Assembly: GCA_030390025.1 (NCBI GenBank)
Contig: CM059432.1
Coordinates: 62,498,001-62,562,000 of the forward strand
Length of the DNA: 64,000 bases
Source of the DNA: Squalus acanthias
Lineage: Eukaryota
Direction of reading: 5' to 3'
Positions 502 through 57,664 of the stretch are shown piece by piece (the first letter of the stretch is position 1; every line of letters starts with the position of its first letter). A program made the position numbers and the translations under genes. The notes beneath the pieces were generated by a model. That model was not told where the DNA came from. It did no database searches and worked only from the letters and a program-made list of their open reading frames with translations.

Positions 502-1985
502 AAAGTATTTGTTTAATTTCACTGATACTTCCTTATTCCCCATTATAATTTCTCCTGTCTCAGCCTATAAGGGACCCACATTTACTTTTCCTAAGCTTTT
601 TCTTTTTACATACCTATAGAAGCTTTTACAGTCTGTTTTTATGTCTCTCATATTCAATTTTCCCTTTCTTTATCAATTTCTTGGTCCTCCTTTGCTGAAT
701 TCTAAAATCCTCCCAATCCTCAGGCTTATTAATCTTTTTGGCAACATTATAAGCCTCTTCCTTTGATCTAATACTATCTTTAACTTCTCTTGTTAGCCAC
801 GGTTGGACCACTTTTCCTGTGGGGTTTTTGTGCCTTAAAGGAATGTATATTTGTTGTAAATTATGTATTAATTCTTTAAATGCTAGCCATTGCTTGTCTA
901 CCGTCATACCTTTTAATGTAGTTTCCCAATCTACCTTCGCCAACTCGCCCCGCATACCTACGTAGTTTGATTTGTTTAGATTTAAGACCCTAATTTCGGA
1001 TTTAACTAAATCACTTTCAAACTAAATATAAAAATCTATGACATTATGGTCACTCTTCCCTAAAGGCCCCTTTACTACAAGATTATTAACTAACCCTTTC
1101 TCAATGCACAATACTAGATCTGTTCCCTGGTTGGTTCCTCAACATACTGATCCAGACAACTATCTTGAATTCGTTCTCCACACTATTACTGCAAATTTGG
1201 TTTGCCCAGTCTATATGTAGATTAAAGTCCCCCATGATTACTGCATTACCCATGTTACATGCACTTCTAATTTCCTGATTTATACTCTGCCCAACATTAC
1301 AACTACTGTTTGGGGGCCGATAAACAACTCCCACCAATGTTTTCTGCCCCTTGCTGTTTCTTAGCTCCACCCAAACGGATTCTACTTCTTGATTTAGAAA
1401 CATAGCAAAATAGGAGCAGGAGTAGGCCATTCGGCCCTTCGAGCCTGCTCTGCCATTCAATATGATCATGGCTGATCCTCTATCTCAATACCATATTCCC
1501 GCTCTCTCCCCATTCCCCTTGATAACTTTTGTGTCTAGAAATCTATCTATCTCCTTCTTAAATATAATCAGTGACTTGGCCTCCACAGCCTTCTGTGGTA
1601 GAGAATTCCACAGGTTCACCACCCTGAGTGAAGAAATTTCTCCTCATCTCAGTCCTAAATGTCCTACCCCGTATCCTGAGACTGTGACCCCTCGTTCTAG
1701 ACCCCGCAGCCAGAGGAAACATCCTCCATGCATCCAGTCTGTCTAGCCCTGTCAGAATTTTATACGTTTCAATGAGATCCCCTCTCATTCTTCTAAACTC
1801 TAGTGAACACAGGCCTAGTCGACCCAATCTCTCCTCATACGACAGTCCTGCCATCCCAGGAATCAGTCTGGTGAACCTTCGCTGCACTCCCTCTATGGCA
1901 AGTATATCCTTTCTTAGGTAAGGAGACCAAAACTGCACACAGTACTCCAGGTGTGGTCTCACCAAGTCCCTGTATAACAATAGTA

Positions 1986-2245
1986 AAAATTGAGAGGTCG
2001 CACAACACCAGGTTATAGTCCAACAGTTTTATTTGAAATCACAAGCTTTCGGAGCTATCGATTGCTCCTTCCTCAGGTGAAGTAAATTAGATACAGAATT
2101 CTGTATCTAATTTACTTCACCTGAGGAAGGAGCAATCGATAGCTCCGAAAGCTTGTGATTTCAAATAAAACTGTTGGACTATAACCTGGTGTTGTGCGAC
2201 CTCTCAATTTTGTCCACCCCAGTCCAACACCGGCATCTCCGCATC
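1986..2245 (+). mobile_element. ORF-less Penelope-like insertion: perfect 226-bp palindrome + 34-nt tail
   Basis: Arms 1986-2098/2099-2211 are exact reverse complements; TSD ATAACAATAGTAA at 1974-1986 and 2246-2258. Confidence 0.8.
2117..2158 (+). ncRNA. Minimal hammerhead ribozyme motif (mirror copy 2039-2080 on minus)
   Basis: TCAC-CTGAGGA-A-GGAGC[AATCGATA]GCTCC-GAAA-GC-TT-GTGA: core, stem I, stem II, palindromic AGCT helix III. Confidence 0.7.
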
Positions 2246-5200
2246 ATAACAATAGTAAGACATCCTTGCTCCTGTACTCAAATCCTCTTGCAATGAAGGC
2301 CAACATACCATTTGCCTTCCTAACTGCTTGCTGCACCTGCATGTTTGCTTTCAGTGACTGGTGTACAAGGACACCCAGGTCCCTTTGTACATCAACATTT
2401 CCCAATCTATCACCATTTAAATAATACTCTGCCTTTCTGTTTTTCCTACCGAAGTGGATAACTTCACATTTATCCACATTATACTGCATCTGCCATGTAT
2501 TTGCCCACTCACTCAACTTGTCTAAATCGCCTTGAAGCCTCTTTGCATCCTCCTCACAACTCACAATCCCACCTACTGTCGTGTCGTCAGGAAACTTGGA
2601 AATATTACATTTGGTTCCCTCATCCAAATCATTGATATATATTGTGAATAGCTGGGGCCCAAGCACTGATCCCTGCAATACCCCACTAGTCACTGCCTGC
2701 CACCCTGAAAAAGACCCATTTATTCCTACTCTCTGTTAACCAATTTTCAATCCATGCCAGTATATTACCCCCAATCCCATGTGCTTTAATTTTGCACACT
2801 AACCTCTTATGTGGGACTTTATCAAAAGGTCTTCTGAAAATCCAAATACACCACATCCACTGGTTCTCCCTTATCTATTCTACCAGTCACATCCTCAAAA
2901 AGGTCCAGTAGGTTTGTCAACCACGATTTCCCTTTCATAAATCCATGTTGACCTTGTCTAATCCTGTTGATATTTTCTAAGTGTTCTGTTATCACATCCT
3001 TTATAATAGACTCTAGCATTTTCCCTACTACTGATGTTAGGCTAACCAGTCAATAGTTCCCTGTTTTCTCTCTCCCTCCTTTTTTAGATAGTGGGGTTAC
3101 ATTTGCCACCCTCCAATCTGCAGGAACTGTTCCATAATCTATAGAATTTTGGAAGATGACAACCAATGCATCCACTATTTCCATGGCTACCTCTTTTAGT
3201 ACTCTGGGATGCCGATTATCAGGCCCTGGGGATTTATCGGCTTTCAGTCCCATTAATTTCTCCAGCACTATTTTTTTTTTACTAATACTAATTCCCTTTA
3301 ATTCCACCTTCTCACTAGACCCTTGGTTCCCTAGCATTTCTAGGAAGTTATTTGTGTCCTCTTCCGTGAAGACAGAACCAAAGTATTTGTTTAATTGCTC
3401 TGCCATTTCCTTGTTCCCCATTATAAATTCTCCCGTTTCTGACTGTAAGAGCTAAGATCCTTTCTCTCTACTGTCTTTATCCCATCCTTTATCAGGGCTA
3501 CCCCTCCTCTTTTTCCATTTTGCCTATCTCTTCTAAAAGTTAAGTATCCTGGAATATTTAGTTCCCAACCTTGGCCACTTGGCAACCACTTCTCCATTAT
3601 GGCTATTAGATCAAACCTGTTAATTTCTTTCTGCGCTATTAATTTATCTATTTTGTTGTGAATGCTTCGCACAGATATAGTGCCTTTAGCTTTGACTTAT
3701 TTCTATTTTTCCCTGATGTCACCTTAGTCACTGATGCCTTATTACCTTTGTTACTCTCTCTGTCCCTTCCTGCTTATTTTTATCCAAAACTCTACTCTGC
3801 TCTACAGCCTTGACATTTCTCTCGCTGCTTTTAAATTTACTCTTTCCTGAATCCTCCCACCACCCCCCGCTTCATTAGTTTAAAGCCATGTCTACTGCCC
3901 TAGTTCGCCAGGACACTGGTCCCAGCCCGCTTTAAGTGGAGCCCGTCCCAATGGAACAGCTCCCTATTTCCCCAGTACTGGTGCCAGTGCCCCATGAACT
4001 GAAACCCATTCTCCCACACCACTCTCTGAGCCACGCATTTAAACGTCTAATCTGTTTGTCCCTATGCTAATTTGCGCGTGGCTCAGGTAACAATCCAGAG
4101 ATTATTACCTTTGAGGTTCTGCTTTTTGATTTGGATCCTAGCTCCTCAAACTCCCTCAGCAGAACCTCATTCCTAGTTCTACCTGCCATTGGTTCCGACG
4201 TGGACCACGACAACTGGATCCTCCCCCTCCCACTCCAAGTTCTTCTCGAGCTGCGAGGAGATGTCTTTAACCCTGGCACCAGGCAGGTAACACAACCTTC
4301 GGGACTCTCGGTCACGGCTGCAGAGAACAGTATCTATCCCCCGACTATACTGTCCCCTACCACAACTACATTCCTTTTCACTCCTCCCACTTGAATGGCC
4401 TCCTGCATCATGGTCAGCTTGCTCATCCATCCTGCAGGCTTTTCCCTCATCCACACAGGCAGCAAGAACCTCACACCTGTTGGACAAGGGCAAAGGCTGA
4501 GGCTCCTCCAGCACTTCACCTGGGGTCCCCTTACCTGCCTAAGTTGCAGTCACACCGTCCTGTCACTGACCACTAATCAGACCTGTACCACTACCTAACC
4601 TAAGGGGTGTGTCTGCCTCCTGGATCAAAGTCTCCCCATCCCTGATACCCCGCAATATCTGCACCCTAGACTCCAGCTCAAAAACTCTGAGCTGAAGTTC
4701 CTCAAGATGCAGGCACTTACTGCAAACGTGGTTGTCCGAGATCATAATGTTCTCCACAAACTCCCACATGCTGCAGTTGCGGCACACCACCTGCACTGCC
4801 ATCCCTATATGACCTTATTTTATTTAATTAAATGTGTTTTTAGGTAACTCAGTTTACAGTGTAGTTTCTTGACTACTTATTTGATCTAGATTAAGTTAAG
4901 GGTACTGAAATTAAATATCTACCTGTAACACAAAGCACTACAAGTAGTGTAGGCAAAAAGCAACAACTCCTTCCCCCATTTCTCCAAATTCCCACTCTTT
5001 CCAAATTCCCAAATAAAACACTCTGTTCAAGTCCACTCCATTTAATCCCACTCACATTTAGTGCATGAGAAGACACAGGGATAAATCTTAGTTTCACTGC
5101 CAAATCACAGAAATGTAAACAATTATCATTAAGATGTATGGGTTATTTAAGCGAATCAAGAAAAGAACAATTTAAGTAGCTTACTTAGAATGAGCATTTA

Positions 5201-5364
5201 GCTTAGTACTGTATTGTTTAATTGAGTGCCTATTATTATTTGTTCCACAGTGCTCTAACTTTTTTTTTAATTCATTTTTTAAATGGGATTTGAAAACAAG
5301 GTCAGCAAGCACAGGGGTGATAGGTGAACGGGACTTGGTGCGAGTTTGGACACGGGCAGCAGAG

Positions 5365-7963
5365 TTTTTTTTTAATTTGTTCATGAGATGTGGGCGTCGC
5401 TGGCAAGGCCAGCAGTTATTACCCATCCCTAATTGCCCTTGAGAAGGTGGTGGTGAGTCGCCTTCTTGAACCGCTACAGTTCGTGTGGTGAAGGTCCTCC
5501 CACAGTGCTGTTAGGGAGGGAGTTCCAGGAATTTGACCCAGCGACGATGAAGCATCGGCGATATACTTCTAAGTCAGGATGGTGTGTGACTTGGAGGGGA
5601 ACTTGGAGGTGGTGGCGTTCCCATGTGCCTGCTGCCCTTGTCCTTCTAGGTGGAAGAGGTTGCGGGTTTGGGAGGTGCTGTCGAAGAAGCCTTGGCGAGT
5701 TGCTGCAGTGCATCTTGTAGATAGTACACACTGCAGCCACGGTACGCCGGTGGTGGAGGGAGTGAATGTTTAAGGTGGTAGATGGGGTGCCAATCAAGCG
5801 GGCTTCTTTGTCCTGGATGGTGTCGAGCTTCTTGAGTGTGGTTGGAGCTGCACTCATCCAGGCAAGTGGAGAGTATTCCATCACACTCCTTACTTGTGCC
5901 TTGTAGATGGTGGAAAGGCTTTGGGGAGTCAGGAGGTGAGACACTCGCCGCAGAATGCCTAGCCTCTGACCTGCTCTTCTTGTCACAGTATTTATGTGGC
6001 TGGTCCAGTTAAGTTTCTGGTCAATGGTGACCCCCCCAGGATGTTGATGGTGGGGGATTCGGCAATGGTAATGCCATTGAATGTCAAGGGGCGGTGGTTA
6101 GACTCTCGCTTGTTGGAGATAGTCATTGCCTGGCACTTCTGTGGCGCAAATGTTACCTGCCACTTATCAGCCCAAGCCTGAACGTCGTCCAGGTCTTGTT
6201 GCATGTGGGCATGGACTGCTTCATTATCTGAGGAGTTGTGAATGGCACTGAACACTGTGCAGTCATCAGCGAACATCCCCATTTCTGACCTTATGTTGGA
6301 GGGAAGGTCATTGATGAAGCAGCTGAAGATGGTTGGGTCTAGGACACTGCCCTGAGGAACTCCTGCAGCGATGTCCTGGGGCTGTGATGATTGACCTTCA
6401 ACCACCACAACCATCTTCCTTTGTGCTAGGTAGGACTCCAGCCAGTGGAGAGTTTCCCCCCTGATTCCCATTAACTTCAGTTTTACTAGGGCTCTTTGAT
6501 GCCACACTCGGTCAAATGCTGCCTTGATGTCTAGGGCAGTCACTCTCACCTCACCTCTGGAATTCAGCTCCTTTGTCCATGTTTGGACCAAGGCTGTAAT
6601 GAGGTCGGGAGCCGAGTGTTCTTGGCGGAACCCAAGCTGGGCATCAGTGAGCAGGTTATTGGTGAGTAAGTGCCACTTGATAGCACGGTCGAAGACACCT
6701 TCCATCACTTTGCTGATGATTGCGAGTAGACAGATCAGGCGGCAATTGGCCGGATTGGATTTGTCCTACTTTTTGTGGACAGGCCATACCTGGGCAGTTT
6801 TCTACATTTTCGGATAGATGCCAGTGTTGTTGCTGTACTGGAACAGCTTAGCTAGAGGCGCGGCTAGTTCTGGAGCACAAGTCTTCAGCACGATAGCCGG
6901 GATGATGTCAGGGCCCATAGCCTTTGCTGTATCCAGTGCGCTCAGCCGTTTCTTGATTTCATGTGGAGTGAATCGAATTGGCTGAAGACTGGCTTCTGTG
7001 ATGGTGGGGATCTCAGGATTAGGCCGATATGGATCATCCACGAAGCACTTCTGGCTGAAGATGGTTGCAAAAGCTTCAGCCTTGTCTTTTGCACTCATGT
7101 GCTGGGCTCCACCATCATTGAGGATGGGGATATTCATGGAGCCTCCTCCTCCCGTTAGTTGTTTAATGGTCCACCACCATTCACAACTCGATGTGGCAGG
7201 ACTGCAGAGCTTTGATCTGATCCGTTGATTGTGGGATCGCTTAGCCCTGTCTATAGCATGCTGCTTCCGCTTTTTAGCATGCATGTAGTCCTGTGTTGCA
7301 GCTTCCCCAGGTTGGCACCTCATTTTTAGGTACGCCTGGTGCTGCTCCTGGCATGCTCTTCTACACTCCTTATTGAACCAGGATTGGTCCCCTGGCTTGA
7401 TGGTAATGGTAGAGTGAGTGATATGCCGGGCCATGAGGTTCCAGATTGTGGTGGAATATAATTCTGCTGCTGCTGATGGCCCACAGCGCCTCATGGATGC
7501 CCAGTTTTGAGCTGCTTGATCTGTTCTGAATCTATCCCATTTAGCACTGTGGTAGTGCCATACAACACGATGGAGGGTATCCTCAGTGTGAAGACTGACA
7601 GCTATGTCCTTCAGGACTCGGCCAGCTCGGTCAGTAGTGGTGCTACCGAGCCACTCTTGGTGATGGACATTGAAGTCCCCCACCCAGAGTACATTCTGTG
7701 CCCTTGCTACTCTCAGTGCTTCTTCCAAGTGGTGTTCAACATGGAGGAGCACTGATTCATCAGCTGAGGGAGGGCGGTAGGTGGTAATCAGCAGGAGGTT
7801 TCCTTGCCCATGCTTGACTTGAAGCCATGAGACTTCATGGGGTCCGGAGTCAATGTTGAGGACTCCCAGGGCCACTCCTTCCCGACTGTATACCACTGTG
7901 CCACCACCCCTGGTGGGTCTATCCTGCCGGTGGTGATGGAGGAGTTTGGGACATTGGCTGAAA
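5365..7963 (-). mobile_element. EN+RT LINE (CR1/L2 group, ORF1-less family), copy A, 5'-truncated
   Basis: ORFs 6802-7995 (TYRPP, GDFNVHH), 5992-6708 (LDIKAAFD, PQGS, FADD), 5474-5986; poly-T at 3' end. Confidence 0.9.
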
Positions 7964-8279
7964 TTCAGCTGTCTCTTGTAAATCATAATTTTCACTTTTC
8001 AGATACAAAAGACTCATAATCTGGATCAGCCAGATCACGGAGTTCTGACAATCTGCTTCTTTGCACCATAAAACAATTGCAATTAATATGAATAGTAAGT
8101 CGGGAAACTGATAGATACATTACCATTTTACCAGACCATTAACATTAAACTTAAGCCCAAAGTCCAGGTAAAACCTAGAACAAATACAATTACACAATAT
8201 CTGGCAGTCTTAAATTTCCATCTCTTATTGATTCTGTTTTCAGTCTGACTGACACACTTCCAACTGTCGTTTCACCCAC

Positions 8280-8370: not shown

Positions 8371-8487
8371 CTGTTTCATGAACAGAAAAATAAAAAAATG
8401 ATTTAAAAGCAGACTTGCATTATTCACCAATGGCTATATTTTGTAGATACAGGCTATAGGGCCAAATTTCAAATGATTGTCACATAC

Positions 8488-10734: not shown

Positions 10735-13135
10735 TAATCATAGAATAATTTAATTTTATAGCAAATTCGGCGCATCGTGCCAACTCTCTGAAAGAATCAA
10801 CCACTTAGTCACATTCCCCTGCCCCATACCCTTTTAAGTTTTTCTCTCTTAAATATTTATCCCCTTTTTTTTTTAAAAGCAATTATAGATTCCTCTTCCA
10901 CCACTGTTGCTGATAGGGCATTCCTTATCTGAGCAACCCTCTTTGTAAAAAAAATTAATTCTCCTAGATTCTCACATTGCTCTTTTGGTGATAATCTTAG
11001 ATGAATACCCTCCAGTTACTGACTCAATGGCCAGTGGAAATACTTTTTTCCTTAACCCCTCACAATTTTGAATATCTCTACCAGATCTCATTTTAACCTT
11101 TGTTCCAATGAAAATAGCCCCAATTTCTCTAGTTTCTCCTCATAAGTAAAGCCTCTCCATCCCCAATATCATCATAGGAATCTCTTCTGTACGCTCTCTA
11201 CGACCTTGACATCTTTCTTAAAGTAAGCCATCCAAACCTGGGCACAATATTCTAACTTTGGCTTAACCAATGATTTGTATCTTAGCATTACCTCTTTGCT
11301 CTTGTACTATACATCCCCATTTATAAAACCTAGGATCCCATATGCTTGCTTTTTTTTTTTACAGCTTTATCAATTTGTCCTCCCACTTCTAAATATTTGT
11401 ATATCTGAATCCCTAATTATCTCCATTCCTCTACTCCTTTTAAATTTTCATCATTTAGTGTATATATTCCCTCTTCATCCCAAAATGTATCACCTCTCAA
11501 TTCTCTGGATTAAATTGCATCTGACATTTATCTACCCAATCTAATAACCTGTCCATGTCCTCCTGAAGTCGCTTAGTCAGTCCTCTGCAGTTCACCAGTG
11601 CCTATTTTGGTGTCATCTGCAAATTCTGATTTTTACCCCCATACCCAAGTCAAGATCATTTAAATATATGGACAAAAGCAATGGACTAACCACTGACCCC
11701 TGGAGGATTTTTAAAAAATTTTTATTCGTTTTATGGGATCTGGGCGTCGCTGGCAAGGCCAGCATTTATTGCCCATCCCTAGTTGCCCTTGAGATGGTGG
11801 TGGTGAGCCACCTTCTTGAACCGTTGCAGTCCGTATGGTGATGGTACTCCCACAGTGCTGTTAGGGAGGGAGTTCCAGGATTTTGACCCAGCGACGATGA
11901 AGGATCAGCGATATACTTCTAAATCAGGATGGTGTGTGACTTGGAGGGGAACTTGGTGGTGGTGGTGGTGGTCCCATGCGCCTGCTGCCCTTGTCCTTCT
12001 AGGTGGAAGAGGTCGCGGGTTTGGGAGGTGCTGCCGAAGAAGCCTTGACGAGTTGCTGCAGTGCATCTTGTAGATGGTACACACTGCAGCCACGGTACGC
12101 CGGTGGTGGAGGGAGTGAATGTTTAAGGTGGTGGATGGGGTGCCAATCAAGCGGGCTGCTTTGTCCTGGATGGTGTCGAGCTTCTTGAGTGTTGTTGGAG
12201 CTGCACTCATCCAGGCAAGTGGAAAGTATTCCATCACACTCCTTACTTGTGCTTTGTAGATGGTGGAAAGGCTTTGGGGAGTCAGGAGGTGAAACACTCG
12301 CCGCAGAATACCTAGCCTCTGACCTGCTCTTGTTGCCACAGTATTTATGTGGCTGGTCCAGTTAAGTTTCTGGTTAATGGTGACCCCCAGGATGTTGATA
12401 GTGGGGGATTCAGCGATGGTAATGCCATTGAATGTCAAGGGGAGGTGGTTAGACTCTCGCTTGTTGGAGATAGTCATTGCCTGGCACTTAAGTGGCAGGT
12501 AACATTCGCGCCACAGATCAGCCCAAGCCTGAATGTCGTCCGGGTCTTGTTGCATGTGGGCATGGACTGCTTCATTATCTGAGGAGTTGTGAATGGCGAT
12601 GAACACTGTGCAGTCATCAGCGAACATCCCCATTTCTGACCTTATGTTGGAGGGAAGGTCATTGATGAAGCAGCTGAAGATGGTTGGGCCTTGGACACTG
12701 CCCTGAGGAACTCCTGATTGACCTTCAACCACCACAACCATCTTCCTTTAGCTAGGTATGACTCCACTGTTTATATCCCTCCAGTCCTAAAAACACCCAT
12801 TAACCACTAATTTTTTTCCTGTCCTTTAACCAAGTTCCTATTCATGTTGCTACATTCTCCAATATCATATACCATAACTTTGTCAACAAGCCTCCTCTGT
12901 GGCACTTAATCATTTTGACAATCCATATACACAACATCCATTCCATAGCCTTAATCAATTCACTCTGTTCTTTTCTTAATAAACTCTTACATTTTTTAGA
13001 CATGATGTACTTTTTACAGAAACATGCTGGTTGTCTTTAATTAACCTATGTCTTTCTAAGCAAATATAAATTTTATCCCATATTATGGGTTCTATAAACT
13101 TACACACTACCTGTACTAATGGTCGGCTGACTGTT
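10735..13135 (-). mobile_element. Old CR1 fragment, interrupted by LINE copy B
   Basis: Degenerate CR1 RT/3' sequence at 10735-11705 resuming at ~12767. Confidence 0.6.
11715..12766 (-). mobile_element. EN+RT LINE copy B (3' part)
   Basis: ORF 11905-12741 with PQGS, FADD; near-identical to copy A. Confidence 0.9.
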
Positions 13136-17463: not shown

Positions 17464-18594
17464 GACCCAGAAATTTGACTCGGAGGCTTGCCGCGGGGTT
17501 AAGGATCGCGCGCGATATCACACTCCGCGCCGGCCGTTGTGTTTTGGGCCCACAGGAACTTCGGGTCCTGGGCCTCTCCCTAGTGCCGGCGCGCAGTGTG
17601 TGCGTGTCCCAGGGGCGCAGTTAGTGCGATGCGACCTCTGGGATCACGTGGGCCATGGAGAGCCAATGGCAGCAGACTATCTTTCATTCATAGATTTGAC
17701 AGGAGACATGTCAAATCTGTGAATTGAAAGAGACCCCAAAAGAACAGCTAAACCGCAAATAAAAATTTTTTTTAAACCATTACATTAATAAAATAACTAT
17801 AGTTAAATAAATTAACCACTTTAAATAAAAATTTAAATTTTTTTAAAAATTAAAAAAAAAATTAAAAGTTATAAAAATAAACTTACAGGAAACTCTTTAT
17901 TAACCGGCACCGACGGGACCGGCGTGGTGCTGGTTAATCAAAAAGTCCGGATAACGGAGAGTTATATCTCCCAACGTACGAGAGCCCCGTACACATTGAC
18001 ATGCGCCTGCATTCGGAGCTCCGTCTCCCCAGGGACCGCCAGCTGACCATCTGTCGTGTCCGCTGCCTACCCGGGCTGCACATTCCCCTCCCAATCTACA
18101 CGCTCCGATACAAGGCAAACGCCTCGGGGTTTTTTTTAAAGTTAATTTTAAACGAGAGATGAAGGAAAACCCCGGTTACCTACTCAAGAATTTTGCCGGT
18201 TAAGAGAGATTTCCAGATATTTGGGTGCCGGTTAATAAAGAGTTTCCTGTACCTTTCTTTAAAGTCTCTAAAAAAGATAAACCTGTTGAAAAAAATTAAA
18301 AATTATACTTAATTAACTACTTACCTTGTTCAAAAGGGGTCTTACGCCTCCTTTTTATATGTGTAGAAGATTCAATACTTACCCTCGCGTTGAAACCTGA
18401 AAAAAAACCTAAGTGTGCTGCGTGCGCACAGCCTGTAGTGCGCACGCGGTTCACCTAGGAACCGCCCCCTTCGCCATAGCGGAAGTGCCGGTTTCCCGCG
18501 CATGCGCAGTGCATGCAGGAAACCGGCACTTCGGGATCTAATACGGGTGAGTACACAGTGCGTACTCTCCCGTATTAGGCCGAATTTTTGGGCC
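17464..18594. mobile_element. Harbinger-type non-autonomous element hosting a pogo-like MITE
   Basis: Ends GACCCAGAAATTTG / CGAATTTTTGGGCC; GC-rich flanks, AT-rich core. Confidence 0.6.
17886..18249. mobile_element. Tc1/mariner (pogo/Tigger-like) MITE, 364 bp, copy 1
   Basis: 26-bp TIR CAGGAAACTCTTTATTAACCGGCACC, TA TSD. Confidence 0.9.
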
Positions 18595-27682: not shown

Positions 27683-28352
27683 TTGAGTCAGCTATTAATG
27701 GTTTCAATAGCCTGCAAATGGATTAAGACACAGGATAAAGTCTGTGCAATTCATCTCAGTTAGGTATGTGAGAAGGCATTTGAAAGGTGAGTTAAAGAGC
27801 TACAAAATGGAAAGGAAAGCAATGGAATGTGAATGGGAGAATCTGTTTGGAAAGTCAGGGAGACAGCAGAGATCTGAAACTGTTTAAGCCAAGCAGCTGA
27901 AGTACTGTCAAAGTTTGCATTGGGCTTGTTTGGAGCATTGTAGGGCAATGATAGCAACACCAGAGAAAGAATGGTAGCAGCAGTTAAAGGGGCAAGCCAC
28001 AGGAAGTCCAGGATCAGCTAATTAAGCCGTTTAGCATTTTCAGGTTAGAAAACAAGGAAATTGACTATATATTTTTTAATACAGCATACAACAGCTATTG
28101 TCCCTGTGCTGTGTTAATATTAGCATATGAATACTTAACACATTAGCATGAAATTCCTTTCCCTGATATTTTAACATAGGCATTGACTCCTGTTAAAAAT
28201 ATATCATTCAATGTCTCAGTTTAATTGTGTACAAAGGAATTTCATATTAATGCGTTAAGTATTTGTGTGCTAATATTCACACAGCCTGATTTCAATGCAA
28301 CAGTCGATGCTTGTTGTTGAATGAAGCAGAATGTTAAGTAGATTTTTCTTAC

Positions 28353-30107: not shown

Positions 30108-30732
30108 CTAAAATCATAGAACAGGGAAATAAAATAAAATAATTGAGTCTGCTTTGGGACTGTAGTATTGTTGGTGAATTAATTGCAAAAGTAAAAAAGT
30201 ACATAAATATACTTTCAAAATGTATTGTAGGATATACTGATCTTACATTATGCATATTCAACATTATTTCTGGTTAATTTCTGGTTAAGTTTACAGTACA
30301 TAAGGAGACCACTCTGTGCATCCAGACTGTGCCAGCTCTTTCCTCACGCAATCCAAAACTAATCCCACTGTCCCACCCTCTCCCTCTAGCCCTGTATCTT
30401 CCTGTGCATCAAATATTTAACCAATTTTCCTTTAAAAGATGCAATGGTGTCTGTCTCAACTGCTCCTTGTTGCAACAACTTGTACAGAACCTTGGTTAAG
30501 CCACACTTGGAGTACTGTCAACAGTTCTGGTCTCCATATTCTAAAAAGGATATAGAGGCACTGGAGAAGGTGCAAAAACGATTTACTGGAATGATACCAG
30601 AACAGAGAGGTTATACCTACCAGGAAAGATTGAACAGGCTGGGGCTCTTTTCTCTAGAAAAAAAAAGTCTGAGGGGTGACCCGATAGAGGTCCTTAGATT
30701 ATGAAAGGGTTTGATAGGGTAAACGTAGAGAA

Positions 30733-32087
30733 TAGGTTATTGACTAACATTCACTACAAGCCCACTGACTCCCACAGCTACCTGGACTACACTTCCTCCC
30801 ACCCCGCCTCCTGTAAGGACTCTATTCCATTCTCCCAGTTTCTCCGTCTCCACCGCATCTGCTCCGACGATGCCACCTTCCATACCAGTGCTTCCGACAT
30901 GTCTTCCTTTTTCCTCAACCAAGGATTCCCCTCTACTGTGGTTGACACGGCCCTCGACCGTGTCCGTTCTATCTCCCGCACTTCCACCCTCACCCCTGCC
31001 CCTCCCTCCCGGAACCACGATAGAGTTCCCCTTGTCCTCACCTTTCACCCCACCAGCCTCCACATTCAACGGATCATCCTCCGCCATTTCCGCCACCTCC
31101 AGCGTGATCCCACCACCAAACGCATCTTCCCCACACCTCCCCTTTCAGCATTCCGCAGAGACCGCTCCCTCCGCGACACCCTAGTCCACTCCTCTACCAC
31201 CCCCAGCACCCCTTCCCCTTCGCCCGGCACCTTCCCGTGCAAGCGCAGGAGATGCAACACATGCCCTTATACCTCCCCTCTCCCCCCTGTCCAGGGCCCC
31301 AAATACCCCTTCCAGGTGAAACAGCAATTTACTTGTACTTCCTGCAATTTAGTATACTGTATTCGCTGCTCACGATGTGGTCTCCTCTACATTGGGGAGA
31401 CCAAACGCAGATTGGGTGACCGCTTTGCAGAACACCTCCGTTCAGTCCGTAAGGGGGACCCCGAGCTCCCGGTGGCCTGTCACTTTAATTCTCCGCTCCA
31501 CTCCCACTCTGACCTCACCGTCCTCGGCCTCTTGCATTGTTCCACAGAAGCTCAGCGTAAGCTCGAGGAACAGCACCTCATCTTTCGTTTAGGCACCCTA
31601 CAGCCCTCTGGACTCAACATCGAGTTCAACAATTTCAGATCATAACCTTGGCCCCGATCACATATATATATATATATCTTTTTATTTTATTTTTTCATCC
31701 ACCCTTTTGTTTGGCCTTTTTTTTCCCCTCCCAGAAGCTGGCAGCTGTCCTTCATTCTGCCAGCGCAGTTCACACTTCATCCAGCCTCTACCTGTCACAT
31801 TACCACCTCCTCTTGCCTTGATTATCTCTTTATGTCTCTTAATCTCTCCTGCTTTCTATCCCACCACTGACCTTGCCTTTTGTTCTTTCATCCCCTCCCC
31901 CTTTTCCCAGCATTATACTTGCTTTAAATCTATTTCATTTCTTGCTTTTTTCCAATTCTGACGAAAGGTCTTCGACCTGAAACGTTAACGCTGTTTCTCT
32001 CTCCACGGATGCTGCCTGGCCTGCTGAGTTTTTCCAGCGTTTTCTGTTGTTATTTCGGATTTCCAGCATCCGCAGTATTTTGCTATC
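30733..32087 (+). mobile_element. 5'-truncated Penelope-like retroelement (RT C-terminus + GIY-YIG endonuclease + terminal repeat region)
   Basis: Open frame to 31645: YKPTD..YL..SSHP..K.SIPFSQFLR; CxxxxCxxC; NLVYCIRC..C.LLYIGETKRRL..RF.EH; GLN; 14-bp TSD GTAAACGTAGAGAA (30719-30732, 32088-32101). Confidence 0.93.
31955..31989 (+). ncRNA. Minimal hammerhead ribozyme motif in the PLE terminal region
   Basis: CTGACGA-A-AGGTC[TTC]GACCT-GAAA-CG-TT; palindromic ACGT helix III; stem I weak in this copy. Confidence 0.6.
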
Positions 32088-33180
32088 GTAAACGTAGAGA
32101 AGATGTTTCCACTTTGACAAGACCAGAACTAGAGGCCATTAATACAAGATACTAATAAATCCAATAGGGAATTCAGGAGAAAGCTGCTTACCTAGAGAGT
32201 GGTTAGAATGTGGAACTCGCTACCACAAGTAGTCAAGACGACTAGCATAGATGCATTTAAGGGGAAGCTAGATAAACACATGAGGGAGAAAGGAAGAGGG
32301 ATATGTTGATGGAGTTAGATGAAGAAGGGTGGGAGGAGGCTCCTGTGGAGCATAAACATCGGTATGGACCTGTTGGGCAGAATGGCCTGTAGCCTGTTTC
32401 TGTGCTGTAAATATTATGTAATACCATGTAACCCTCTACAGACATTCTCCTAATCCCCTTCGTACTTTTTAAGTGAAGATTTTAAATTGATAACCGCTTG
32501 TCGCCGACTCCCTAATCAGAGAAAATAGTGTTTCCCTATTTACCTTATTAAAACCCTTCACAATTTTTAAAACCGCTTTTAAATGTCCTCTGAGCGTTCT
32601 CTACTCTAGTAGAAATTGTCCCAGTATCTCAAGTCTCTCCTCATAACTAGCTTCACAAGCCTGGCATCATCCTGGTGAATCTATGGTGTGTGCTCTCTAT
32701 GGCTTTAATGTCCTTTCTATAATGGGGTGCAAAATCTACACAGAGTAGTCTTAACTATGGTCTAACCAATGTTTTGTTCAAATTTATCATTACTTCTTGA
32801 CACTTGTACTCTATGCCCGTATTTATAAAACCTAAAATGCTATAAGGGATGTAAATGTACGACTGGATGGTGTAAGATGGGGAACAGTTCAGAGTGCTGG
32901 ACATTGGGACCAGTTCTGGGAGAGAAGCAACCTGTACAAGATAGACAGGCCTCATCTGAATAATTTGTGACGTGGGAGTGGAGGAGCTGTGGAGGGGGAA
33001 TGGCATTTAAACTAATATAGCAAAGGGAGATAATTTTAAAAATGAAGAAGCTGAAAGGGAAGCAAAAGAGACAAGGCATATAGGAAAGAATAAAGAGAAA
33101 ACAGGAAATTAAAAAACAGATCAAGAGGAGAGATTAAAAGAGTAAAATTGCCAAACAGACAGAGGCAGACTTGAGTTATT

Positions 33181-38279: not shown

Positions 38280-39118
38280 CTAATTTTGCGTGTAATTGGT
38301 AAATTAACTTCAATATAGATAAGTGTGAGGTGGTACATTTTGGTAGGAAGAATAAGGAGGCCACATACTCCTTGGAAAATAAGTGTCTAAATGAGGTAGA
38401 GTAGGAGAGGGATCTGGGCGTACAGATATACAAATCACTAAAAGTAGCGACACAGGTCAATAAGGCCATAAAAAAGCAAACAAAGCATTGGGGTTCATTT
38501 CTAGAGGGATAGAATTGAAAAGCAGAGAAGTTATGCTAAATATGTATAGAAACTTGGTTAGACCACACTTGGAGTACTGTCAACCGTTCTGGTCTCCATA
38601 TTCTAAAAAGGATATAGAGGCACTGGAGAAGGTGCAAAAATGATTTATTGGAATGATACCAGAACTGAGGTTATACGTATCAGGAAAGATTGAACAGGCT
38701 GGGGCTCTTTTCTCTAGAAAAGAGAAGACTGAGAAGTGACCTATTAGAGTTCCTTAAGATTATGAAAGGGTTTGATAGGGTAGACATAGAAACGACGTTT
38801 TCACTTGCGGGGGAGACCAGAAGTAGGGGCCATAAATATAAGATAGTCACTAATAAATCCAATAGGGAATTCAGGAGAAACTTCTTTGCCCAGAGTGTGG
38901 TTAGAATGTGGAACTCTCTGCCACAATGAGTAGTTCTGATGACTAGCATAGATGCATTTAAGGGAAGCTAGATAAACACATGAGGGAGAAAGGAATCGAA
39001 GCATATGTTAATGGAATCAGATAAAGAAGGGAGAGAGGAGGTTAGCGTGGAGCATAAACACCGACCGGCATGGACCTGTTGGGCGGAATGACCTGTTTCT
39101 GTGCTGTAAATACTATGT
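38280..39118 (+). mobile_element. CR1 3' fragment
   Basis: LGLFSLEKRRLR..RRNFF.Q.VVRMWNSLP; TATGTAA-type tail split by a MITE. Confidence 0.88.
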
Positions 39119-39119
39119 A

Positions 39120-39483
39120 CAGGAAACTCTTTATTAACCGGCACCCAAATATCCGGAAATCTCTCTTAACCGGCAAAATTCTTGAGTAGGTAACCGGGGT
39201 TTTCCTTCATCTCTCGTTTAAAATTAACTTTAAAAAAAACCCCGAGGCGTTTGCCTTGTATCGGAGCGTGTAGATTGGGAGGGGAATGTGCAGCCCGGGT
39301 AGGCAGCGGACACGACAGATGGTCAGCTGGCGGTCCCCGGGGAGACGGAGCTCCGAATGCAGGCGCATGTCAATGTGTACAGGGCTCTCGTACGTTGGGA
39401 GATATAACTCTCCGTTATCCGGACTTTTTGATTAACCGGCACCACGCCGGTCCCGTCGGTGCCAGTTAATAAAGAGTTTCCTG
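39120..39483. mobile_element. pogo/Tigger-like MITE, 364 bp, copy 2 (inverted relative to copy 1)
   Basis: Same TIR, TA TSD, near-identical to 17886-18249. Confidence 0.9.
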
Positions 39484-39750
39484 TAATATTATGTAATAAT
39501 TGTGTAGGACACTCCGTATCATATTTTTTATTATATTCAAATGAAACAATGCCTCTCCACTTCTTGTAATGTATTATAATAACGTTTGCTGAAGAAACCA
39601 AGCTATGTGACCAGCTGGTGAGTACCCTGGCGTGACTCTGCAGCTTTTGGAGAGAGAAAATTAGATGGAAAATGTTTTTATCAATTTATGGCAAATATGT
39701 ATTATTTCAAACACTCGATTAGAATACTGCAGTGATTAAAGGAGAATTAC

Positions 39751-41539: not shown

Positions 41540-44500
41540 ATTTATTTTTTTATATTCGTTCATGGGATGTGGGCGTCGCTGGCAAGACCAGCATTTATTG
41601 CCCATCCCTAGTTTCCCTCGAGAAGGTGCTGGTGAGCTGCCTTCTTGAACGGCTGCAGTCCGTGTGGTGAAGGTACTCCCACAGTGCTGTTAGGGAGGGA
41701 GTTCCAGGATTTTGACCCAGCGACGATGAAGGATCGGCGATAGACTTCTAAATCAGGATGGTGTGTGACTTGGAGGTGGTGGTGTTCACATGTGTCTGCT
41801 ACCCTTGTCCTTCTAGGTGGAAGAGGTCGCAGGTTTGGGAGGTGCTGCCGAAGAAGCCTTGGCGAGTTGCTGCAGTGCATCTTGTAGATGGTACACACTG
41901 CAGCCACGGTACGCCGGTGGTGGAGGGAGTGAATGTTTAAGGTGGTGGATGGGGTGCCAATCAAGCGGGCTGCTTTGTCCTGGATGGTGTCGAACTTGTT
42001 GTGTGCTGTTGGAGCTGCACTCATCCGGGCAAGTGGAAAGTATTCCATCACCCTCCTTACTTGTGCCTTGTAGATGGTGGAAAGGCTTTGGGGAGTCAGG
42101 AGGGGAGACACTCGCCGCAGAATACCTAGCCTCTGACCTGCTCTTGTTGCCACAGTATTTATGTGGCTGGTACAGTTAAGTTTCTGGTCAATAGTGACCC
42201 CCCAGGATGTTGATGGTGGGGGATTCAGCAATGGTAATGCCGTTGAATGTCATGGGGCGGTGGTTAGACTCTCGCTTGTTGGAGATAGTCATTGCCTGGC
42301 ACTTGTGTGGCACGAATGTTACCTGCTACTTATCAGCCCAAGCCTGAACGTCCTCCAGGTCTTGTTGCATGCGGGCATGGACTGCTTCATTATCTGAGGA
42401 GTTGTGAATGGCACTGAACACTGTGCAGTCATCAGCAAACATCCCCATTTCTGACCTTATGTTGGAGGGAAGGTCATTGATGAAGCAGCTAAAGATGGTT
42501 GGGCCTTGGACACTGCCCTGAGGAACTCCTGCAGCAATGTCCTGGGGCTGTGATGATTGACCTTCAACCACCACAACCATTTTCCTTTGTGCTCGGTATG
42601 ACTCAAGCCAGTGGAGAGTTTTCCCCCCCCGATTCCCATTGACTTCAGTTTTACTAGGGCTCCTTGATGCCACACTCGGCCTTGATGTCAAGGGCAGTCA
42701 CTCTCACCTCACCTCTGGAATTCAGCTCCTTTGTCCATGTTTGGACCAAAGCTGGAATGAGGTCAGGAGCCTAGTTGTCTTGGTGGAACCCAAACTGGGC
42801 ATCAGTGAGCAGGTTATTGGTGAGTAAGTGCCGCTTGATAACGCTGTCGATGACACCTTCCATCACTTTGCTGATGATTGAGAGTAGACTGATGGGGCGG
42901 TAATTGGCCGGATTGGATTTGTCCTGCTTTTTGTGGGCAGTTTACCACATTATCGGATAAATGCCTGCATTGTAGCTGTACTGGAACAGCTTGGTTAGAG
43001 GCGCAACTAGTTCTGGAGCACAAGTCTTCAGCACGACAGCCGGGATGTTGTCGGGGCCCACAGCCTTTGCTGTATCCAGTGCGTTCAGCCGTTTCTTGAT
43101 ATCACGTGGAGTGAATCGAATTGGCTGAAGACTGGCTTCTGTGATGATGGAAGCAGATATGGATCATCCACTCGGCACTTCTGGCTGAAGATGGTTGCAA
43201 ACGCTTCAGCCTTGTCTTTTGCACTCATGTGCTGAGCTCCACCATCATTGAGGATGGGGATATTCATGGAGCCTTCTCCTCTTGTTAGTTGTTTAATGGT
43301 CCACCACCATTCACGACTCGATGTGGCAGGACTGCAAAGCCTTGATCTGATCCGTTGGTTGTGGGATCGCTTAGCCCTGTCTATAGCATGCTGCTTCTGC
43401 TTTTTAGCATGCATGTAGTCCTGTGTTGCAGCTTCCCCAGGTTGGCACCTCATTTTTAGGTATGCCTGGTGCTGCTCCTGGCATGCTCTTCTACACTCCT
43501 TACTGAACCAGGGTTGGTCCCCTGGCTTGATGGTAATGGTAGAGTGAGGGATATGCCAGGCCATGAGGTTACAGATTGTGGTGGAATACAATTCTGCTGC
43601 TGCTGATGGCCCACAGCACCTCTTGGATGCCCAGTTTTGAGCTGCTAGATCTGTTCTGAATCTATCCCATTTAGCACGGTGGTAGTGCCACACAACATGA
43701 TGGAGGGTGTCCTCAGTGTGAAGACGTGACTTGGTCTCCACAATGACTGTGCGTCACTGCTACCAATGGACAGATGCAGCTGCAACAGTTAGATTGGGGA
43801 GGACGAGGTCAAGTAGGTTTTTCCCTCGTGTTGGTTCTCTCACCACCTGTCGCAGGCCCAGACTGGCAGCCATGTCCTTCAGGACTTGGCCAGCTCGGTC
43901 ACTAGTGGTGCGACCGAGCCACTTTTGGTGATGGACATTGAAGTCCCCCACCCAGAGTACATTTTGTGCCCTTGCTACTTTCAGTGCTTCTTCCAAGTGG
44001 TGTTCAACATGGAGCAGTACTGATTCATCAGCTGAGGGAGGGCGTTAGGTGGTAATCAGCAGGAGGTTTCCTTGCCCATACTTGACCTGAAGCCATGAGA
44101 CTTCATGGGGTCTGGAGTCAATATGAGGACTCCCAGGGCCACTCCTTCCCGACTGTATACCACTGTGCCACCACCCCTGCTGGATCTGTCCTGCCGGTGG
44201 AACAGGACATAGCCAAGGATGGTGGAGGTATTTGGGACATTGGCTGAAAGGTATGATTCTGTGAGTATGACTATGTCAGGCTGTTGCTTGACTCGTCTGT
44301 GGGACAGCTCTCCCAATTTTGGCACAAGTCCCCAGATGATGGTGAGGAGGACTTTACAGGGTTGACTGGGCTGGGTGTGCCGTTGCCGTGTCCATAGCCG
44401 GTGCCGAGGTTGATGCCGGGTGGTCCGTCCGGTTTTATTCTTATTGTGTTTCGTAGCGGTTTCTTACAACTGAGTGGCTTGCTAGGCCATTTCAGAGGGC

Positions 44501-44680
44501 AGTTAAGAGTCAAACACAGTGCTGTGGGTCTGGAGTCACATATAAACCAGACCAGGTAAGGACGGCAGATTTCCTTCCCGAGGACATTAGTGAACCAGAT
44601 GGGTTTTACGACAATCCGATAGTTTCAAGGTTACCATTACTGATACAAGCTTTTAATTCTAGATTTATTTAATTATTTAA
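41540..44680 (-). mobile_element. EN+RT LINE copy C, near full length, frameshifted
   Basis: PKLGELSHR..QQPDIVILTESYL through RT and 3' end; 5' UTR present but head missing. Confidence 0.9.
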
Positions 44681-49049: not shown

Positions 49050-52000
49050 ATTCATTCCTGGGATGTAGGCGCTGCATTTATTGCCCATCCCCAATTGCCC
49101 TTGAGGAGGTGGTGGTGAGCCGTCTTCTTGAACCACTGCAGTCCGTGCGATGAAGGTACTCCCACAGTGCTGTTAGGGAGGGAGTTCCAGGATTTTGACC
49201 CAGCGACAATGAAGGATCGGCGATATATTTCCAAGTCAGGATAGTGTGTGACTTGAAGGGGAACTTGGAGGTGGCGGTGTTCCCATGCGCCTGCTGCCCT
49301 TGTCCTTCTAGATGGTAGAGGTCGCGGGTTTGGGAGATGCTGCTGAAGAAGCCTTGGTGAGTTGCTGCAGTGCATCTTGTAGATGGTACACACTGCAGCC
49401 ACGGTACGCTGGTGGTGGAGGGAGTGAATGTTTAAGGCGGTGAATGGGGTACCAATCAAGCGGGCTGCTTTGTCTTGGATGGTGTCGAGCTTCTTGAGTG
49501 TTGTTGGAGCTGCACTCATCCAGGTGCGTGGAGAGTATTCCATCACACTCCTGATTTGTGCCTTGTAGATGATGAGTAAGGAGGTGAGACACTCGCCACA
49601 GAATACCTAGCCTCTGACCTGCTCTTGTAGCCACTGTATTTAAGTGGCTGGTGCAGTTAAGTTTCTGGTCAATGGTGACCCCCCCAGGACGTTGATCTTG
49701 GGGGATTCGGCGATGGTAATGCCGTTGAATGTCATGGGGCAGTGGTTAGACTCTCGCTTGTTGGAGATTGGCATTGCCTGGCACTTGGGTGGCACGAATG
49801 TTACTTGCCACTTATTAGCCCAAGCGTGAATGTCATCTAGGTCTTGCTGCATGTGGACATGGACTGCTCCATTATCTGAGGAGTTGCGAATGGAACTGAA
49901 CACTGTGCAATCATCAGTGAACATCCCCACTTGTGACCTTAAGATGGAGGGAAGATCACCGATGAAGCAGCTGAAGATGGTTGGGCCTAGGACACTGCTC
50001 TGAGGAACTCCTGCAGCGATGTCCTGGGGCTGAGATGATTGACCTCCAACAACCACAACCATATTCCTTTGTGCTAGGTATGACTCGAGCCAGTGGAGAG
50101 TTTTCCCCGATTCCCATTGACTTCAATTTTACTGGGGCTCCTAGATGCCACATTTGGGCAAATGCTGCCTTGATATCAAGGGCAGTCACTCTCACCTCAC
50201 CTCTGGAATTCAGCTCTTTTGTCCATGTTTGAACCAAGGCTGCAATGAGGTCTGGAGCCGAGTGGTCCTGGTGGAACCCAAACTGAACATCGATGAGCAG
50301 GTTATTGGTGAGTAAGTGCCGCTTAATAACACTGTCGATGACACCTTCCATCACTTTGCTGATGATTGAGAGTAGACTGATGGAGCGATAATTGGCTGGA
50401 TTGGATATTGGATTTGTCCTGCTGTTTGTGGAGAGGACATACCTGGACAGTTTTCCACATTGTCAAGTAGATGCCAGTGTTGTAACTGTACTGGAACAGC
50501 TTGGCTAGAGGTGCGGCTAGTTCTGGAGCACAAGTCTTCAGCACGACAGCCGGGATGTTGCCGGGGCCCATAGCCTTTGCTGTATCCAGTGCGCTCAGCC
50601 ATTTCTTGATATCACATGAAGTAAATCGAAGTGGCTGAAGACTGGCTTCTGTGATGGTGGGGACCTCAGGAGGAGGCAGAGTTGGATCATCCACTCGGCA
50701 TTTCGGGCTGAAGATGGTTGCAAACGCTTCAGCCTTGTCTTTTGCACTCATGTGTTGGGCTCCGCCATCATTGAGGATGGGGATATTCATGAAGCCTCCT
50801 CCTCCCGTTAGTTGGTTAATGGTCCACCACCATTCACGACTGGATGTGACAGGACTGCAGAGCTTTGATCTGATCCGTTGGTTGTGGGACCACTTAGCCC
50901 TGTCTATAGCATGCTGCTTCCGCTGCTTAGCGTGCATGTAGTCCTGTGTTGCAGCTTCCCCAGGTTAGCACCTCATTTTTAGGTACGCCTGGTGCTGCTA
51001 CTGGCATGCTCTTCTACACTGCTCATTGAACCAGGGTTGGTCCCCTGGCTTGATGGTAATGGTAGAGTAACGGATATGCTGGGCCATGAGGTTACAGATT
51101 GTGGCGGAATACAATTCTGCTGCTGCTGATGGCCCACAGCGCCTCATGGATGCCCAGTTTTGAGCTGCTAGATCTGTTCTGAATCTATCCCATTTAGCAC
51201 GGTGGTAGTGCCACACAACACGATGGAGGGTGTCCTCAGTGTGTAGATCGGACTTCGTCTCCACAGGGACTGCACAGTGGTCTCTGCTACCAATACTGTC
51301 ATGGACAGATGCATCTGCGACAGGTAGATTGGTGAGGACGAGGTCAAGTAGGTTTTTCCCTCATGTTGGTTCTCTCACCACCTGTCGCAGGCCCAGTCTG
51401 GCAGCTGTGTCTTCAGGACTTGGCCAGCTCAGTAGGTAGTGGTGCTACCGAGCCACTCTTGGTTGAAGTCCCCCACCCAGAGTACATTCTGTGCCCTTGG
51501 TACTCTCAGTGCTTCTTCCAAGTGGTGTTCAACATGGAGGAGTACTGATTCATCAACTGAGGGAAGGCGGTAGGTGGTAATCAGCAGGAGGTTTCCTTGC
51601 CTATGCTTGACCTGAAGCCATGAGACTTCAGTCAATGTTGAGGACTCCCAGGGCCACTCCCTCCCGATTGTATACCACTGAGCCGCCACCCAGGTGGGTC
51701 TGTCCTGTCCTGTGGGATGGTGATGGAGGAGTTTGGGACATTGGCTGAGAGGTATGATTCTGTGAGTATGAATATGTCAGGTTGTTGCTTGACTAGTCTG
51801 TGTGACAGCTCTCCCAATTTAGGCACAAGTCCCCAGATGTTGGTGAGGAGGACTTTGCAGGGTCGACTGGGCTGGGTGTGCCGTTGTCGTGTCCAGTGCT
51901 CCATCCAATTTTATTCTTATTATTGTGTTTCGTAGCGGTTAGTTACAACTGAGTGGCTTGCTAGGCCATTTCAGAGGGCAGTTAAGAGTCAACCACATTG

Positions 52001-52272
52001 CTGTGGGTCTGGAGTCACATATAGGCCAGACCAAGTAAAGACAGCAGATTTCCTTCCCTAAAGGACATTAGTGAACCAGATTCTGTTTTTACGACAATCT
52101 GATAGTTGCATGGTTACCATTACTGATACTAGCTTTTTATTCCAGATTTATTTAATTAACTGAATTTAAATTCCCCAGCTGCCGTGGTGGGATTTGAACT
52201 CACGTTCCTGGATCATTGGTCCAGGCCACTGGATTACTAGCCCAGTAACATTACCGCTATGCTACTGTTTCC
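49050..52272 (-). mobile_element. EN+RT LINE copy D, apparently full length, with tRNA-like head
   Basis: VLLTNIWGLVPKLGEL..EN, RT and C-terminal fragments; A box 52254-52264, B box 52189-52199. Confidence 0.9.
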
Positions 52273-54231: not shown

Positions 54232-54520
54232 AGAGTCTCAGGATACGGGGTACGACATTTAGCACTGAGATGAGGAGAAATTTCTTCAGAGGGTGGTGAA
54301 CCTGTGGAATTCTCTACCACAGAAGGCTGTGGAGGCCAAGTCACTGAATATATTTAAGAAGGAGAGATAGATTTCTAGACACAAAAGGCATCAAGGTATG
54401 GGGAGAGAGCGGGAATATGGTATTGAGATCGAGGATCAGCCATGATCATATTGAATGGAGGAGCAGGCTTGAAGGGCTGAATGGCCTACTCCTGCTCCTA
54501 TTTTTCTATGCTTCTATGTG
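54232..54520 (+). mobile_element. CR1 3' end
   Basis: Reverse complement of 1395-1690. Confidence 0.88.
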
Positions 54521-56780: not shown

Positions 56781-57435
56781 TATTTTTATAATCTTTTATT
56801 TCCAAAATAGAAATGAAAATTTTCAAGTCATAACATCTTTCCTTTCCAGATTTCCACCCCCACCCCCACTGACATTTGTTAAATTCCACTATTTAGCCTT
56901 CAAAGCCACATATGACCGACTTTCAAGCCCACACAAATGTCATCCTGAGCCGAATGCCATCAGGAACATGAAAGTAGATGGGGAACAGGCCTTTGATTTT
57001 CCATCTCCACTTCGTAGCGGTGTCTGGCTTTCACTTGGCACCTCTCTACATCAGCAGAGTAGAGATCAAGGTTGCCCAACATGATAGTGCGATAAAACTG
57101 CACATCTGTTTACATAGAATTGCAACATGGAAACAGGCTGTTAGGGCTAACCGATCCATATTTGTATTTAAGTTCCACATGTTTTCACAAAGCATGCGAG
57201 AAATAATTTTATAGGGCAGGATTAAAGAAATGCACAAAACCACATGCAATTTCTTAAACTTTGAAAAGAGGTAACAAAACTGTTTATTATTTTGGTGTAG
57301 CAATCCCACTCAAGTCCTCACTGGGTTAACATACAAGAACACAAAATAATTCAAGATTACTAAAACAACTTATTGGCATAGCCCTGGCCCAAACAAAAAA
57401 CGGACAGACAGACATAGTCTACTCCTCTTAATTCA

Positions 57436-57664
57436 TGATGCGGAGATGCCGGTGTTGGACTGGGGTGGACAAAAATGAGAAGTCGCACAACACCAGGTTA
57501 TAGTCCAACAGATTTATTTAAAATTACAAGCTTTCGGAGCTGTCGCCCCTTCGACAGGTAAAGGTACCTTTACCTGACGAAGGGGCGACAGCTCCGAAAG
57601 CTTGTAATTTTAAATAAATCTGTTGGACTATAACCTGGTGTTGTGCGACTTCTCATTTTTGTCC
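57436..57664 (-). mobile_element. Second ORF-less Penelope-like palindromic insertion (198-bp palindrome + tail)
   Basis: Arms 57467-57565/57566-57664 with one mismatch; tail 57436-57466; TSD TCCTCTTAATTCA at 57423-57435 and 57662-57674. Confidence 0.8.
57570..57607 (+). ncRNA. Minimal hammerhead ribozyme motif (mirror 57524-57561 on minus has a core substitution)
   Basis: TTAC-CTGACGA-A-GGGGC[GACA]GCTCC-GAAA-GC-TT-GTAA. Confidence 0.7.

Follow-up and report, generated by a model that had tools for sequence, protein, structure and literature searches.

A perfect palindrome beside the PRKDC exons of Squalus acanthias: very probably the fold-back product of a Penelope-like element insertion

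Insertions of the Penelope-like elements (PLEs) Pen2a, Pen2 and Pen3a in the rotifer Adineta vaga were described by Arkhipova et al. 2013 as carrying an inverted pseudo-long terminal repeat (pLTR), palindromes at the junction, a 31-bp tail and a target-site duplication (TSD) of 8–10 bp, and self-priming on an antisense template was proposed (PMC3846280). According to Craig et al. 2021, an inverted, 5′-truncated copy accompanied by a 30–40-bp tail is general in PLEs, its origin being given as undefined (PMC8557442). The subject of this work is a 226-bp perfect palindrome with a one-sided tail, copy A, in a 64,000-nt stretch of the genome of Squalus acanthias (assembly GCA_030390025.1, contig CM059432.1, positions 62,498,001–62,562,000, forward strand). 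This stretch is called the window below, and all coordinates are counted from its first letter. Copy A is very probably a fold-back product of a PLE, made at its own insertion.

Hammerhead ribozymes are also known from PLEs. Cervera and De la Pena 2014 reported a minimal shape (min-HHR) in PLE ends, with dual motifs lying 100–700 bp apart on opposite strands; most of the motifs were isolated, probably deriving from truncated PLEs, and activity was low and confined to multimers (PMC4209133). For Poseidon of Anolis carolinensis (PAc), Frangieh et al. 2024 report that both strands are cut and extended at AT-rich DNA, that the tail lies between two reverse transcriptase (RT) start sites and that hammerhead mutants still insert (PMC11167929). 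Animal non-LTR retrozymes are described as tandem arrays, joined head-to-tail, in which the hammerheads lie on one strand (bioRxiv 10.64898/2026.07.22.740005). A literature search found no account of palindromic stubs of PLEs from sharks or vertebrates; most subscription papers, supplements and Repbase/Dfam lay outside that search, and the family may be catalogued. The observation is real and copy A is most likely of the kind already described, a hairpin-shaped stub of a PLE end. The novelty implied by a first-pass annotation, which had been made from the letters of the window, was therefore too high, the pattern being published.

Anatomy of the two inserts

Copy A consists, in order, of a TSD, an inverted arm, a direct arm, a tail and the second TSD. 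The arms (1986–2098 and 2099–2211) are 113 nt each and 100% complementary, with a spacer of 0 nt and the centre GAATTC. The first is an inverted, tail-less copy of the PLE end, with its hammerhead core on the minus strand from 2076; the second, on the plus strand, is a direct copy that is 5′-truncated at the centre of the palindrome. The core of copy B (see below) apart, the longest other perfect palindrome in the window has arms of 10 nt. An exact 13-bp TSD, ATAACAATAGTAA, flanks the insert at 1974–1986 and 2246–2258, and base 1986 is common to the left TSD and the inverted arm. By a rough estimate, the chance figure for 13-mers that match no more than 5 nt from each end is 4e-6. The unpaired tail (2212–2245, plus strand) is found on one side only. 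It is 34 nt long, or possibly up to 36 nt (to 2247), as the first two bases of the TSD equal the element end seen in copy B, which has the same tail. The fold energy of arm plus tail was no better than that of shuffles (z −0.27), so no special tail structure is claimed. No open reading frame (ORF) was found in the insert: the plus strand has no ATG and the longest stop-free stretch in six frames is at most 43 codons. On recheck the arms, their centre, the tail, the TSD and the lack of an ORF were exactly as first annotated. Arm divergence is below 2.6% (95% bound), which would make the arms young, although gene conversion between them could mimic youth.

A second member of the family, missed in the first-pass annotation, lies on the minus strand at 57423–57674. 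This copy B has its own 13-bp TSD (57423–57435 and 57662–57674; 69% A+T, against 85% in copy A), the tail and 99-nt arms centred at 57565/57566. Its arms differ by one mismatch, in one of the hammerhead cores (57554), which is best read as a later mutation. Over the span common to both, copies A and B are 91–92% identical. Their outer ends agree within 1–2 nt and their inner ends within about 1–5 nt, and the centre of copy B lies 14 nt further 3′ than that of copy A. The arms differ at 0 of 113 positions in copy A and 1 of 99 in copy B, against 8–9% between the copies, as expected if one arm was copied from the other. Microhomology between TSD and element end amounts to 1 nt at the inner end of copy A, 3 nt at that of copy B and 1–2 nt at the outer end of copy A. 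Equal ends with different centres suggest that the mirror arm was most likely built at each insertion and that, on this sequence comparison, the 226-bp unit is most likely not what moves.

The likeness to the rotifer insertions is close: a head-to-head copy, a palindrome at the junction, a one-sided tail of 30–40 nt, a TSD and an AT-rich target are all present. The differences are that only about 147 nt of the element end remain in copy A, that a single hairpin without an ORF makes up the entire insert, and that the TSD is 13 bp rather than the 8–10 bp of the rotifer examples described (PMC3846280). Four of five features of insertions by endonuclease-bearing PLEs were found, namely the head-to-head inverted 5′-truncated copy, the 30–40-nt tail, the TSD at an AT-rich site and the terminal hammerhead. 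Copy A is most likely a dead-on-arrival, extremely 5′-truncated insertion of an abundant PLE of this endonuclease-bearing type. One of the two origins proposed in the first-pass annotation, a minimal fold-back product of PLE integration, is supported by copy B, with its shared outer ends, different centre and own TSD, and by the published PLE architecture.

The hammerhead motif

The direct arm carries a minimal type I hammerhead motif (2117–2158, plus strand), a putative ribozyme. In copy A, helix I is formed by TCAC (2117–2120) and GTGA (2155–2158), giving 4 bp, and the core by CTGAGGA (2121–2127), a bulged A (2128) and GAAA (2147–2150). Helix II (2129–2133 with 2142–2146) has 5 bp, and GCTT (2151–2154) follows the second core segment, with the predicted cut after 2154. 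The motif, with CUGAGGA, the palindromic AGCU and the predicted cut site, lies where the first-pass annotation had placed it. A relaxed hammerhead descriptor gave three matches in the window, in both arms of copy A and one arm of copy B, against 0.01 match per shuffled window (200 shuffles). Between copies A and B there is a compensatory change in helix I, from C-G to U-A, and a change in helix II, from A-U to G-U, that keeps the pairing.

The min-HHR features found in copy A are the CUGANGA and GAAA cores, helices I and II, the bulged base, the G10.1–C11.1 pair and a palindromic 15.2–16.2. It shares with the published descriptions of the min-HHR the 4-bp helix I, the extra nucleotide that separates position 9 from 10.1, G10.1–C11.1, the palindromic 15.2–16.2 and the lack of helix III (PMC4209133). 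Copy A differs in its helix II, of 5 bp with an 8-nt loop where the Schistosoma families have 7–8 bp (PMC4209133); it also has G as N7, U as N17 and about 45 nt between its two cores. The presence of a hammerhead on both strands is a consequence of the palindrome only.

Computed folding gave very different results for the arm and for the whole insert. For the arm by itself the probability that helices I and II form is 0.64–0.98, whereas a transcript of the whole palindrome folds into a duplex of −209 to −217 kcal/mol in which the pair probabilities of the hammerhead helices are 0.0. As the long duplex outcompetes these helices, the ribozyme would be expected to be silent at the copy A locus on either strand. 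The double-stranded RNA (dsRNA) hairpin that had been foreseen is therefore upheld by the prediction (−217 kcal/mol), but the same duplex is predicted to abolish the hammerhead that had been foreseen with it. When two units were co-folded, the best structure was a dimer joined via the helix II loop and not the AGCU-paired active form. It was also seen that the self-complementary word after the GAAA core reaches six bases (2149–2154), position 17 being U; in a dimer this word could pair A14 with U17, hindering cleavage. Rfam microRNA (miRNA) models matched the hairpin far below their gathering scores, and these sub-threshold matches reflect the hairpin alone.

Copy A resembles PAc in that the hammerhead lies shortly upstream of an A/C-rich tail, the tail is bounded by two fixed sites, the target is AT-rich and the hammerhead is uncut in inserts. 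In PAc the ORF begins at helix II, whereas the sense arm and tail of copy A contain no ATG. With the animal retrozymes copy A has in common that it is short and non-coding, with a type I hammerhead and kinship to PLE pLTRs. The retrozymes are arranged head-to-tail in tandem and copy A head-to-head, with a tail and a TSD. A non-LTR retrozyme was accordingly rejected as an identity for copy A, which has the head-to-head pair only and no direct repeat of a unit.

Origin of the mirror arm

The scheme favoured here combines the anatomy of the two copies (equal outer ends and different centres, near-identical arms, microhomologies and AT-rich TSDs) with what the papers supply: the overall layout, a tail enclosed by two RT start sites, cuts in both strands and insertion without hammerhead cleavage. 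A PLE protein with RT and GIY-YIG domains, presumably made elsewhere and acting in trans, would cut both strands of an AT-rich target 13 nt apart. Reverse transcription would be primed at the tail's outer end and would copy about 147 nt of uncleaved RNA, hammerhead included, the hammerhead being a passenger from the pLTR. The short antisense cDNA may then snap back on a few self-complementary bases and copy itself, a step to which roughly even chances are given. Such a cDNA, being the antisense strand, would have the antisense template that the published self-priming proposal requires (PMC3846280). Self-copying would halt where the tail has its fixed inner boundary, or the strand would be cut there, and the end would be joined to the other target end via 1–3 nt of microhomology.

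Public sequencing runs were compared with the insert; 15 of 24 contain half or more of the sampled words, and four of the 24 were aligned, at 88% likeness. Runs X1, X2 and X6 contain the arm as a very abundant repeat, although its summed depth is no copy number. From its peak to the bin at the palindrome centre this depth falls about 24-, 22- and 57-fold, respectively, as 5′ truncation would give. Among the 15 joints listed of 205, four lie inside the palindrome, with arm offsets of 0–16 nt. Three of these four sit on micro-hairpins of the arm, which has seven (the three being 2115–2129, helix II at 2129–2146, and 2147–2162). The listed joints fit snap-back at micro-hairpins and are given little weight.

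Several points weigh against the assignment to a PLE and the snap-back scheme. The full comparison of the family rests on copies A and B only. No RT/GIY-YIG ORF sharing the family end is found in the window, the end of the other PLE present there being different. A 21-nt word conserved in the family had 0 loci in metagenome and viral contigs, and a 19-nt word from the tail had eight loci in the collection scans, all eight of which were judged to be chance (51–67% G+C, similarity limited to 19–26 nt). The Rfam covariance models gave no hammerhead at E ≤ 10 in 1500–2800 or 2099–2200 and none at the gathering score in the window. The covariance-model search proposed in the first-pass annotation thus came out negative, probably because helix III is absent from the minimal variants. 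The hairpin that snap-back would require beforehand at the centre of each copy is an assumption, the uncut source sequence 5′ of the centres being unseen. The short sides of the joints are only 18–26 letters, which weakens their evidence, and chimeric reads at inverted repeats are reported to arise in library preparation (PMC10908179).

The strongest competitor is priming from both sides, a somewhat less probable route to the same fold-back product. A protein dimer would prime both target ends, from the outer and the inner start sites, on two RNAs, and the two antisense cDNAs would be joined head-to-head by inverted microhomology. PAc speaks for this: a dimer by prediction, it acts on both strands, cutting and extending each, and its tail is delimited by two RT start sites (PMC11167929). 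The inner boundary kept between copies A and B, with 1–3 nt of target microhomology, is likewise what a primed junction would look like. Independent cDNAs, however, need not stop at the same base, and the arm offset is 0 in A and B and 0–16 nt in the four listed joints. The identity or near-identity of the arms, when family members differ by 8–9%, fits two-sided priming only if both templates came from one locus.

An extension of the snap-back scheme is judged unlikely. In it the first-strand cDNA would snap back at short hairpins, the hammerhead helices among them, and in this way provide the antisense template, and some stubs with favoured centres would be re-amplified as a palindromic non-autonomous class distinct from the tandem retrozymes.

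The other origin named in the first-pass annotation, a palindromic non-autonomous ribozyme retroelement family, fared badly and is considered improbable. Here the 226-bp hairpin and tail would be transcribed and re-inserted as a unit, in the manner of a retrozyme or a MITE (miniature inverted-repeat transposable element). Some fold-back joints do reach a depth of 280–520, in one to four contigs, and recurring centres could be the reason; hot spots, or library chimeras of the kind reported (PMC10908179), would be expected to produce such recurrence too. The two copies of the family in the window are both very small and palindromic, and non-autonomous PLE derivatives exist (PMC8557442; bioRxiv 10.64898/2026.07.22.740005). 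Yet the centres of A and B differ, the depth collapses at the palindrome centre (about 20- to 60-fold) and the tandem direct repeats of the described retrozymes (bioRxiv 10.64898/2026.07.22.740005) are absent. The unit transcript would, moreover, be the −209 to −217 kcal/mol duplex, in which the hammerhead helices do not form, and the one-sided tail is unlike a MITE with terminal inverted repeats. A MITE or fixed hairpin family was rejected as an identity for the inserts, as two of two copies differ in centre and the inverted repeats stop short of one terminus, at the tail.

There is very little reason to think that copy A has been exapted by its host as a regulatory dsRNA or an active ribozyme in the PRKDC pre-mRNA. 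It does have PRKDC exons upstream of it on the transcribed strand, is probably intronic, and its RNA is predicted to give a duplex of 110 bp. Against this, it sits in a decayed long interspersed nuclear element (LINE), is young by its arm divergence (<2.6% at 95%), belongs to a very abundant repeat and contains a hammerhead that is predicted to be unable to fold inside the duplex.

The reads neither confirm nor refute the assembly, because none of the contig pieces listed (24, with 74051 others unlisted) runs across the copy A locus or its junctions, where paralogues swamp the signal; raw-read run X22 gave 41 reads only, 0 of them over 2064–2129. Least credible of all is that the fold-back arose as an artefact of assembly or sequencing: artefacts in the form of perfect palindromes with no spacer are known and no listed piece spans the locus, but copy A has an exact 13-bp TSD, flanks that restore an open LINE frame when joined and a tail on one side, where a fold-back artefact would mirror the flank too, and copy B is an independent insert of the same layout with an arm mismatch, so that two copies, each with a TSD and unmirrored flanks, argue strongly against it.

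Genomic setting and implications

Copy A splits a decayed LINE on the minus strand (626–3451) with APE and RT domains, recognised from minus-strand profile matches to RVT_1 (2244–2735) and Exo_endo_phos_2 (1101–1484). Deletion of the insert and one TSD copy leaves one frame open across the site. Of the insertion into a CR1 that had been annotated, the insertion into a LINE is confirmed by this frame; the element is presumably of CR1 type, a label based on a C-terminal motif and not on a repeat library. The joint 1973>2246, which is the exact empty site, is present in X1, X2 and X6; it possibly comes from other copies of the LINE and is not taken as polymorphism. A 289-bp piece of the 3′ region of the LINE (1395–1683) recurs in the opposite orientation at 54234–54516 with 93% identity.

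The coding exons of PRKDC (DNA-PKcs) found in the window lie on the minus strand at 8437–53925. The DNA-PKcs_N profile matched 13 segments there in order, profile position 1 falling at 53.9 kb and position 792 (of 810) at 8.4 kb, the exon mapping being based on 154 of 251 candidate segments tested. This supports the PRKDC setting given in the first-pass annotation. Copy A follows the last PRKDC exon found at a distance of about 6 kb, and no exon downstream was detected in the window. As DNA-PKcs extends far beyond its DNA-PKcs_N domain, copy A is probably intronic, the part of the earlier statement that goes beyond the exon matches. Copy B is 5′ of the first exon detected with Pfam and possibly lies in intron 1. 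For a candidate exon 1 at 61183–61040 (minus strand; ATG, 48 codons, a GT donor and G+C-rich sequence upstream), two PDB searches brought no confirmation.

As a locus, copy A is a young non-coding retroelement stub in a decayed LINE, in a probable PRKDC intron, and of little import. Stubs of this kind are of more general use, as the formation of PLE inverted repeats is still called undefined (PMC8557442) and these tiny inserts preserve, within 270 bp, the point of fold-back as well as the two outer junctions, which makes them good material for testing models of the inversion. If the snap-back scheme is true, a genome with very many stubs could separate it from two-sided priming by sequence alone. 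Stubs also place long, perfect dsRNA hairpins in introns, where they could attract A-to-I editing or be a source of small RNAs. In annotation they are easily mistaken for MITEs or for miRNA precursors, the latter risk being apparent from the sub-threshold Rfam miRNA matches to the copy A hairpin.

A PLE of a different family, copy C, occupies 30719–32101 on the plus strand. It has a 5′-truncated ORF ending in a GIY-YIG domain (E 2.3e-4, just under the Pfam cut-off), a 14-bp TSD and no inversion, and there is a hammerhead-like core at 31958 in its 3′ end. Copy C is inserted in a CR1-like fragment, as copy A is in a LINE, and it shows that PLEs have been mobile in this region. It was rejected as the autonomous partner of the copy A family, since its end aligns at the hammerhead core only.

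Three further repeats were seen in the window. What looks like a young MITE is present at 17875–18260 and 39118–39485, the two copies being 98% identical over 376 bp, with terminal inverted repeats of 28–37 nt that are 312 nt apart. Near a PRKDC exon there is an imperfect inverted repeat (28108–28285) with 53-nt arms, 87% complementary, and a 72-nt spacer. A second LINE family is represented by four minus-strand copies, 86–92% identical, at 5357–7998, 11719–12770, 41545–44680 and 49050–52270.

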